From the IMG/VR virus record IMGVR_UViG_2541047798_000008: DNA of 31,449 nucleotides, one strand, 5' to 3'. This DNA comes from a virus (taxonomy: Duplodnaviria > Heunggongvirae > Uroviricota > Caudoviricetes). Positions 6,576 to 6,902 of the stretch are shown here, one piece after another; position 1 is the first letter of the stretch; every line of letters starts with the position of its first letter. The position numbers and the translations under genes are program-made. The notes under the pieces are model-generated. The model searched no databases and was not told where the DNA came from. It saw only the letters and a list, made by a program, of their open reading frames with translations.

Positions 6576-6902
6576 TCAGGGACGTGACGGCGTAAAGATA
6601 AATTGTCTCTTCACTCCCTGACAGGGGCGATTCTTTTCAAATCGCCATTTCGCCATGGCCTTCACCACTTCATCACGAAACAAATTATGAGGCTCTGAGC
6701 GGAGAAAAACGATCCGTGTCACAGTCCCATCAGCACCAATATCGAACTTAACCTCAACCAGCCCCTTGATATAATTTGCTGCAGCATATTCCGGATATCG
6801 TGGATACACCGTCACTAATTGCCGGGGCTCATCAGCTTTTTGCTGCGAGCATCCCACTGCCAGGACAGATAACAGAAAAAGTAGTAAAAGGCGTCTTTTC
6901 AT
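6576..6902 (-). CDS. Lipoprotein with a TonB C-terminal-like domain (108 aa)
   Basis: ATG 6900-6902 with AGGAAT upstream. MKRRLLLLFLLSVLAVGC is a lipoprotein-type signal with cysteine. YPRYPEYAAANYIKGLVEVKFDIGADGTVTRIVFLRSEPHNLFRDEVVKAMAKWRF...QFIFT fits the TonB_C pattern. Confidence 0.7.
   Translation of the reverse strand: MKRRLLLLFLLSVLAVGCSQQKADEPRQLVTVYPRYPEYAAANYIKGLVEVKFDIGADGTVTRIVFLRSEPHNLFRDEVVKAMAKWRFEKNRPCQGVKRQFIFTPSRP

Follow-up and report, generated by a model that had tools for sequence, protein, structure and literature searches.

A prophage lipoprotein built on a stand-alone TonB C-terminal domain: a possible outer-membrane decoy for TonB boxes

What could the C-terminal domain of TonB do for a cell when it stands alone on a lipid anchor and is encoded by a phage? 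The question is raised by a gene in the IMG/VR virus record IMGVR_UViG_2541047798_000008, a lambdoid Escherichia coli prophage of 31,449 nucleotides (hereafter "the window", by which we mean the whole stretch of DNA that was analysed). The gene lies on the minus strand at 6576-6902, and an initial annotation had described its 108-amino-acid product as a lipoprotein made almost entirely of a TonB C-terminal domain, situated in the cargo position after the spanin gene Rz and possibly acting as a TonB mimic that excludes TonB-dependent phages or colicins. We found the observation made on the sequence to be confirmed in every respect and far beyond chance. The interpretation is partly supported: its account of the protein's anatomy holds, and the function that it suggests, while hypothetical, is plausible and better motivated than before. 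The function that we favour, at a probability of about 0.45, is that of an outer-membrane-anchored decoy, in which a lipid-anchored TonB C-terminal domain would occupy TonB boxes with no transduction of energy. The evidence comprises profile and structure comparisons of the product, published effects of periplasmic TonB fragments, and the predicted iron regulation of its relatives.

A TonB C-terminal domain on a predicted lipid anchor

Reading from an ATG at 6902 to a stop at 6576, the gene and its parts comprise the following features.

6576-6902, minus strand: coding sequence of the 108-amino-acid TonB_C lipoprotein, from the open reading frame (ORF) list, Pfam and NCBIfam, and the annotation of phage 21 and E. 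coli AR_0017.
6909-6912, minus strand: Shine-Dalgarno sequence AGGA, 6 nt 5' of the ATG, read from the sequence; a ribosome-binding site is annotated at the equivalent position in phage 21.
6849-6902, minus strand: signal peptide (residues 1-17) and lipobox Cys18 (codon 6851-6849), with Ser at +2, read from the sequence.
6594-6833, minus strand: TonB C-terminal domain, residues 24-103, equivalent to residues 151-230 of E. coli TonB, from a gapless phmmer alignment, AlphaFold2 and Foldseek.

The N-terminus, MKRRLLLLFLLSVLAVG-C18-SQQKADEPRQL..., is organised as a basic n-region, a hydrophobic core and the lipobox L-A-V-G-C followed by Ser at +2. It conforms to the signal peptidase II pattern ([LVI][ASTVI][GAS]-C, with the Cys within the first ~35 residues), which predicts that the product is a lipoprotein. 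The lipobox Cys is invariant among close homologues and kept in most of the wider family, bearing out the lipoprotein signal of the initial annotation. Across the family the +2 residue is S, T, A or V and in no member Asp, and the absence of Asp at this position from the window protein predicts sorting to the outer membrane under the E. coli Lol rule. The linker from Cys18 to the folded domain is only about 8 residues long. Sequence and alignment also agree with the initial annotation on what is missing relative to genuine TonB: the 108-amino-acid product lacks a proline-rich spacer, and it lacks an N-terminal transmembrane anchor, its N-terminus being a cleavable lipoprotein signal. Nor does the product contain a C-terminal hydrophobic segment.

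That the remainder of the protein is a TonB C-terminal domain was evident from both profiles and structure. Pfam TonB_C (PF03544) matched residues 33-99 with 49.2 bits against a cut-off of 24.6 (E=7.3e-13), and TIGR01352 (tonB_Cterm) scored 47.4 bits against a cut-off of 27.1. Searches of PDB sequences with phmmer aligned the protein to the E. coli TonB domains 1u07, 2gsk and 2grx with E-values of ~1e-14 and no gaps, and 32 of 80 residues (40%) are identical to residues 151-230 of E. coli TonB (P02929). The NCBIfam equivalogs for full TonB (PRK10819) scored 45-69 bits against cut-offs of 265-448, with only the C-terminal part of the models covered. An AlphaFold2 model generated from a 31-sequence family alignment had a mean predicted local distance difference test score (pLDDT) of 87, rising to 96-98 over residues 25-105, and superseded an earlier model from 6 close homologues (pLDDT 61). 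The model displays the alpha1-beta1-beta2-alpha2-beta3 fold of the TonB C-terminal domain, with the beta3 strand predicted at residues 94-103. The top Foldseek matches in the PDB were all TonB C-terminal domains (1u07_A, 2gsk_B and 2grx_C; target-normalised template-modelling (TM) score 0.91-0.92, root-mean-square deviation (rmsd) 0.9-1.5 Å), and the structural matches overall were to TonB or TolA domains only, while the BFVD viral structure library gave no match below E=0.1. Overlays were close on TonB bound to BtuB (2gsk_B; TM 0.92, rmsd 1.0 Å) and to FhuA (2grx_C; TM 0.92, rmsd 0.9 Å). Core residues Y36, F53, G59, F75, W86, F88 and F103 are kept, corresponding to TonB Y163, F180, G186, F202, W213, Y215 and F230. 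By threshold and by fold the protein is thus a member of the TonB_C domain family, as first annotated, and because anchor and spacer are absent it is no TonB energy transducer.

Comparison with E. coli TonB (P02929, ~150-239) accordingly yields a shared domain, fold, YP motif and aromatic core, set against a different architecture: TonB has a transmembrane helix that anchors it in the inner membrane and a proline-rich spacer, whereas the window protein has neither, is predicted to be lipid-anchored, probably in the outer membrane, ends at the equivalent of TonB residue 235 and does not keep TonB R158, Q160, Q162 and R166. TonB_C domains of FusB and HasB were also among the structural matches (7zc8, 2m2k); both retain a transmembrane anchor, work with ExbBD-type motors and energise transport, whereas the window protein has no such anchor and would compete with transport.

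TonB engages TonB boxes through its C-terminal domain (structures 2gsk and 2grx), and we propose on this basis that the protein may act as a decoy for them. Following export and lipidation at Cys18, as the lipobox implies, the protein would be placed by the Lol system in the inner leaflet of the outer membrane; this is what the E. coli sorting rule predicts from Ser at +2, and it would bring the domain beside the TonB boxes of the transporters. The short tether would hold the TonB-type alpha/beta domain just beneath the outer membrane, where the beta3 edge would most likely capture TonB-box strands by beta-strand addition, as TonB does. Either TonB-dependent transporters, among them FhuA, FepA, Cir and BtuB, or imported group B colicins could supply the TonB boxes. 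Such binding would be non-productive because there is no ExbB/ExbD-coupled anchor, and by competing with TonB it could lower the TonB-dependent entry of T1/phi80-like phages, colicins and microcins.

Published inhibition by periplasmic TonB fragments, together with the precedent of T5 Llp, makes this mechanism plausible. As cited in PMC9841981, iron import through the transporters is inhibited when a periplasmic TonB domain is overproduced, and engineered periplasmic fragments inhibit the transport that depends on FhuA and FecA (Howard, Herrmann, Stratilo and Braun 2001, J Bacteriol 183:5885). The same article credits Tuckman and Osburne (1992) with the observation that a TonB-box pentapeptide was inhibitory both to infection by phi80 and to killing by colicins. 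The abstracts on Llp describe an outer-membrane lipoprotein of the phage that acts from the periplasmic face to block the TonB-dependent transporter FhuA. The engineered fragments present a TonB domain in the periplasm with no energy-coupling anchor, just as proposed here; they are laboratory-made, soluble and overproduced, whereas the window protein is natural, phage-borne, predicted to be lipid-anchored and under purifying selection. By analogy, we propose that its mode of action would be closest to that of the engineered fragments and its biological role closest to that of Llp and Cor (the latter from phi80, N15 and HK022). These two, likewise small outer-membrane lipoproteins encoded by phages, target a TonB-dependent transporter from its periplasmic face, but neither Pfam, PHROGs nor Foldseek indicates a sequence or fold relationship to the window protein. 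Furthermore, Llp and Cor are FhuA-specific and also block the TonB-independent phage T5, whereas a TonB mimic should affect many transporters, and TonB-dependent steps only.

Distribution, selection and iron regulation of the family

The gene falls into two clades in E. coli. Clade A, comprising sequences at least 95% identical to that of the window, was found in 1226 of 5426 complete genomes, and clade B (70-72% protein identity) in 417, as well as in Stx1a-converting phages and JLK-2012; between them the two clades account for approximately a quarter to 30% of those genomes. The gene was also identified in phages ev017, Perceval and three PhiR phages, and relatives are encoded on 218 IMG/VR contigs. 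Between clades A and B the ratio of nonsynonymous to synonymous substitution (dN/dS) is 0.14 at a dS of ~1.3, and is equally low in signal peptide and domain. The gene is under purifying selection and functional.

Beyond E. coli, an exhaustive HMMER search identified many proteins of 107-133 amino acids that match from residue 1 to ~105, most of them consisting of a lipobox and a TonB_C domain alone. These derive from Salmonella, the Klebsiella pneumoniae complex, K. michiganensis/grimontii, Gibbsiella, Rahnella, Erwinia/Pantoea and Serratia, and their sources name them just "TonB family protein". The window protein scores 99 bits against this mini-TonB family, signal peptide included, and 57 bits against TonB, and is therefore a member of an Enterobacterales-wide family rather than a recent clip of E. 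coli tonB. Some members are ordinary chromosomal genes, adjoining lacZ/lacI in Klebsiella and Raoultella and lying between ycgN and dsbB in Serratia grimesii. A sub-group from Serratia and relatives (P0085, P0263, P0265 and P0266) possesses a non-lipoprotein signal peptide and a conserved tail, '...VYGNGVPFR', which suggests soluble periplasmic versions of the stand-alone domain. Databases already record that the gene exists and which domain it encodes, as RefSeq WP_000830178.1 ('TonB family protein') and phage 21 CPT_21_73 ('TonB C-terminal domain protein'), but give no function for it; full-text literature searches found no functional study of this protein, nor any report of phage or colicin exclusion by it. 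The Gifsy defence gene described in PMC12724215 is an ATPase and unrelated.

Upstream of the relatives we identified a recurrent operator. In Salmonella-type prophages, TGATAATTATTATCA, a 7-1-7 Fur consensus, occupies the short gap between spanin and gene and ends 15 nt before the start codon. More generally, TGATAATnATTATCA was found with 0-1 mismatch, ending 15-63 nt 5' of the start, at 21 of 21 loci (Salmonella-type, 9/9; the L113-118 group, 6/6; chromosomal Klebsiella/Raoultella, 5/5; and one Serratia locus). The scan covered 1.17 Mb of sequence and recovered its positive control, the known Fur site of sitA in phage 21. Against the 19-mer Fur consensus, Klebsiella prophages score 12-14/19 and E. 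coli clade B 13/19. The boxes of the relatives overlap or directly adjoin, on its 3' side, a conserved extended -10-like element, with variants TGnTAGTAT (Salmonella, Klebsiella), TGTTAGAAT (clade B) and TGTCAGAAT (window 6930-6922), and a 13-nt deletion in clade A takes out the right half of the Fur palindrome. For the window allele, Fur control was considered and dropped, its matches standing at chance level. Iron regulation is probably an ancestral property of the family. Two features of the window belong here.

6922-6930, minus strand: extended -10-like element TGTCAGAAT, a candidate promoter element that aligns with the TGTTAGTAT / TGTTAGAAT preceding the Fur box of the relatives, from alignment.
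6460-6484, minus strand: 9-bp GC-rich hairpin ~90 nt past the stop codon, followed by a partly U-rich stretch, from the sequence and RNA folding.

This element and this hairpin are the features of the gene that would correspond to the own promoter and terminator of a phage cargo gene, and strict scans found neither on this strand (sigma-70 promoters and terminators, both over 5600-7800). The hairpin, a possible weak or bidirectional terminator, separates the TonB_C gene from a convergent ORF on the plus strand.

Fur-like palindromes also occur beside cosN in the window. One, at 2673-2687, is perfect (TGATAATGATTATCA, ~35 nt from cosN, at a second cos), and another, at 5848-5862 in the first cos region, has two mismatches; similar palindromes recur 3' of the gene in many related phages (e.g. 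L097:4815, L113:4670 and L022:8061). These are probably a packaging-site (cosQ-flank) element rather than Fur sites. Since the same palindrome stands beside cosN, the motif alone is no proof of Fur control in lambdoid DNA; for the relatives, the position at -15 and the presence in non-phage loci make the Fur reading convincing.

Set beside the decoy mechanism, the Fur boxes of the relatives and the Ser at +2 lend indirect support to a link with the TonB/iron system. In most relatives, a Fur-repressed promoter of their own would lead to the protein being made when iron limitation de-represses the transporters that serve as phage and colicin receptors. In clade A, where the operator is deleted, expression may come from the remnant promoter, from late-operon read-through, or from both.

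Several observations weigh against a decoy. It is the fold that suggests TonB-box binding, and TonB R158, Q160, Q162 and R166, residues that we take to contact TonB boxes through their side chains, correspond here to T31, Y33, R35 and Y39, at positions that vary across the family. A general competitor of TonB induced by iron starvation should harm iron uptake, and yet Fur-boxed copies reside at ordinary chromosomal loci of Klebsiella, Raoultella and Serratia, which points to an advantage for the host when iron is limiting; the cost of such an inhibitor during iron starvation keeps other roles in play. The PADLOC defence library returned no match to the protein. The window allele itself has no Fur box in 6850-7300 (best 11/19, at chance level, by 19-mer and 7-1-7 scans), and the strict sigma-70 scan found no strong minus-strand promoter upstream of the gene, so that its expression in the lysogen is putative.

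The same Fur boxes admit a second explanation, fairly unlikely in our judgement, in which the gene is an accessory of the iron regulon and has no part in defence. An outer-membrane-tethered domain would then serve the iron-starved cell, and phages would carry it as a fitness gene, like sitABCD; it might regulate which transporters reach the limited TonB, keep TonB boxes bound or primed, or have another periplasmic partner such as TonB, ExbD or peptidoglycan. Consistent with such a role are the canonical boxes 5' of the non-prophage copies at lacZ/lacI in Klebsiella/Raoultella and ycgN-dsbB in Serratia, as well as the lack of conservation at the presumed contact residues. Also consistent is the presence of sitABCD, a TonB-independent Fe/Mn importer (21967-25416 in phage 21, OL657228, downstream of the side tail fibre), in all six distinct clade A phages (seven records). 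This association is not general, however: the TonB_C gene is missing from 20 phage records that carry sit, and sit from 7 clade B records, on which grounds a functional pairing with sitABCD was rejected, and co-carriage is probably a lineage effect. Coupling to ExbB/ExbD, moreover, would be impossible without a transmembrane anchor. We know of no positive role for a free TonB C-terminal domain, which counts against an accessory function. The effect of a periplasmic TonB domain reported in the work cited above is inhibition, as the decoy mechanism would have it.

A cargo slot beside the lysis genes

The position of the gene bears on what else it might do. On the minus strand of the window the order is Rz/Rz1, a 310-nt gap, the TonB_C gene, the hairpin, the cos region, Nu1 and gpA, with the following features.

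7213-7686, minus strand: Rz i-spanin (Pfam Phage_lysis, E=2e-47), with the Rz1 o-spanin embedded at 7275-7460 (Rz1, E=4e-20); end of the lysis cassette.
7030-7203, minus strand: non-coding block just 3' of Rz, the upstream edge of a variable cargo slot, from blastn and alignment.
5772-5867, no strand assigned: cos-flanking block, the downstream edge of the cargo slot, containing the Fur-box-like palindrome at 5848-5862, from an internal repeat, a motif scan and the cos annotation of phage 21.
5108-5617, minus strand: Nu1, downstream of the TonB_C gene.

The placement after Rz given in the initial annotation holds, with Rz and Rz1 identified by Pfam and the gene following on the same strand. 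The gene is cargo (a 'moron') in a variable slot between lysis cassette and cos. As expected of a moron, which is present or absent between conserved flanks in related phages, the post-Rz and cos blocks within the window itself flank different cargo at 3463-2687 and at 7040-5862. The clade B gene and a Klebsiella phage homologue (41% identical) likewise follow lysis genes and precede different HNH/terminase modules. Phage 21 carries an identical gene and has bor in the same Rz-to-cos interval, beside the TonB_C gene. Lambda Bor thus shares slot and class with our protein, as small lipoprotein cargo; it has an unrelated fold, lies on the opposite strand and acts in serum resistance.

Over the first 125 alignment columns of the post-Rz block, clades A and B are ~95% identical, and over the whole of it ~80%, compared with only 74% for the coding sequence. 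A second copy lies at 3463-3693, and the block compared in a relative is L003:3045-3234. Over ~170 nt it contains a nested hairpin, CACCGGG...CCCGGTG, with a loop indel. A structured RNA was considered and not upheld, there being no Rfam match and a fold z-score against shuffled sequences of -1.8, which is not significant. The block is probably a recombination or module-boundary homology block, and may alternatively be a regulatory element. Between the TonB_C gene and cos, small overlapping ORFs at 6100-6453 (plus) and 6232-6369 (minus) have no Pfam match; RefSeq calls a 45-amino-acid minus-strand ORF in this interval, and phage 21 annotates ORFs of 40 and 60 amino acids.

Placement next to the spanins raises a third explanation, distinctly improbable in our view, that the protein functions late in infection or in lysis. 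Made from the Q-antiterminated late transcript along with holin, endolysin and spanins, it would act at the outer membrane around the time of lysis, where it might modulate the spanins, or neutralise receptors and so spare progeny from debris, as proposed for T5 Llp. Among 38 distinct upstream contexts from viral contigs, with neighbours identified by Pfam and members down to ~40% identity, 32 have the gene co-oriented with spanin genes and 68-2059 nt downstream of them, a constancy of position that is in keeping with this role, as is the lack of a Fur box or strong own promoter in the window allele. The protein also matches PHROG 1267 (E=5e-43), which is labelled 'Rz-like spanin'. Identity as a spanin was nevertheless rejected: Pfam gives no Rz1, LysC or Phage_lysis match, a complete and separate Rz/Rz1 pair lies upstream, and the product has no C-terminal transmembrane domain and so is not a unimolecular spanin. 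Most relatives, moreover, are predicted to have a Fur-controlled promoter of their own, and some lie outside phages, while a block of TonB would be needless on de-energised debris.

More improbable still is self-exclusion of the Cor/Llp type, by which the protein would exclude the carrying phage and its relatives that use a TonB-dependent receptor. The precedent comes from Cor (phi80, N15, HK022) and, also according to abstracts, Llp (T5), each a small outer-membrane lipoprotein with which a phage inactivates FhuA. In phage 21, however, the C-terminus of J is lambda-J-like (57% identity to lambda and 56% to h434) with no separate fold, and this lambda-like tip makes Cor-style self-exclusion unlikely. 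The gene also moves freely by recombination between phages that differ in their tail and packaging modules, and Pfam and PHROGs return only TonB_C and phrog_1267/34172 for the protein, with no similarity to the Cor or Llp families. A decaying remnant of a captured tonB, which the annotations 'TonB fragment' and 'partial tonB-like membrane protein' in ev017, Perceval and CP-933N would imply, is scarcely credible and effectively refuted by the selection and family data, given the low dN/dS at high dS, an acquired and conserved lipobox, a multi-genus family closer to itself than to TonB, a high-confidence predicted fold, and a reading frame intact in more than 1200 genomes.

Other features of the window were also recorded. 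The gpA terminase ORF at 3652-5193 (minus) stops after ~500 amino acids, and its end is the C-terminus of an Rz protein (junction 3652-3700). The sequence past this junction comprises the second post-Rz block, then different cargo (a small ORF at 2843-3028, by eye a candidate DUF3950/YlcI-type gene), and further copies of Nu1 (1901-2512) and gpA (1-1986). The window thus looks like a chimera, arising from recombination between two lambdoid prophages or from a tandem arrangement. Rfam models matched above gathering score at 12109-12373, 16852-17026, 25954-26005, 12453-12699 and 30472-30558; the elements comprise STnc100 and AsxR (an anti-stx2 small RNA) downstream of the late promoter region, sok beside hokD, DicF, and three clustered tRNAs plus one more. 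No stx genes were found in the window. A 653-amino-acid ORF at 9995-11956 (minus) lies where Stx phages carry stx-adjacent cargo; its AR_0017 counterpart is annotated as a SASA family carbohydrate esterase, and our guess is a NanS-p-like sialate O-acetylesterase.

Implications of a natural TonB mimic

The gene is common in E. coli, including Stx1a-converting phages and the classic phage 21, yet it is annotated only as "TonB family protein" or "TonB fragment". What appears to be new is the use of a TonB C-terminal domain as a putatively lipid-anchored stand-alone protein, in a widespread and partly phage-borne family that is predicted to have been Fur-controlled ancestrally.

A bolder and rather doubtful extension of the decoy mechanism is that Enterobacterales and their temperate phages share a set of unrecognised outer-membrane-tethered TonB mimics, ancestrally de-repressed through Fur as transporters flood the surface, and acting as broad TonB-box decoys. 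One 108-amino-acid protein could then make cells tolerant of TonB-dependent phages, group B colicins and siderophore-microcins as entire classes, and would do so at low cost because TonB, rather than the transporters, limits iron uptake.

If the decoy function is true, the gene would be a natural parallel to the poisoning of TonB-dependent uptake by a free TonB C-terminal domain seen in the laboratory, and mimicry of a host energy transducer would join the known exclusion strategies of phages. It would bear on the susceptibility of lysogens to TonB-dependent phages, on their susceptibility to colicins and microcins, and hence on competition in the gut under iron limitation, as well as on siderophore-conjugated antibiotics (Trojan horses of the cefiderocol type). 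The Fur boxes of the relatives and the chromosomal copies of the gene provide testable handles on these roles.

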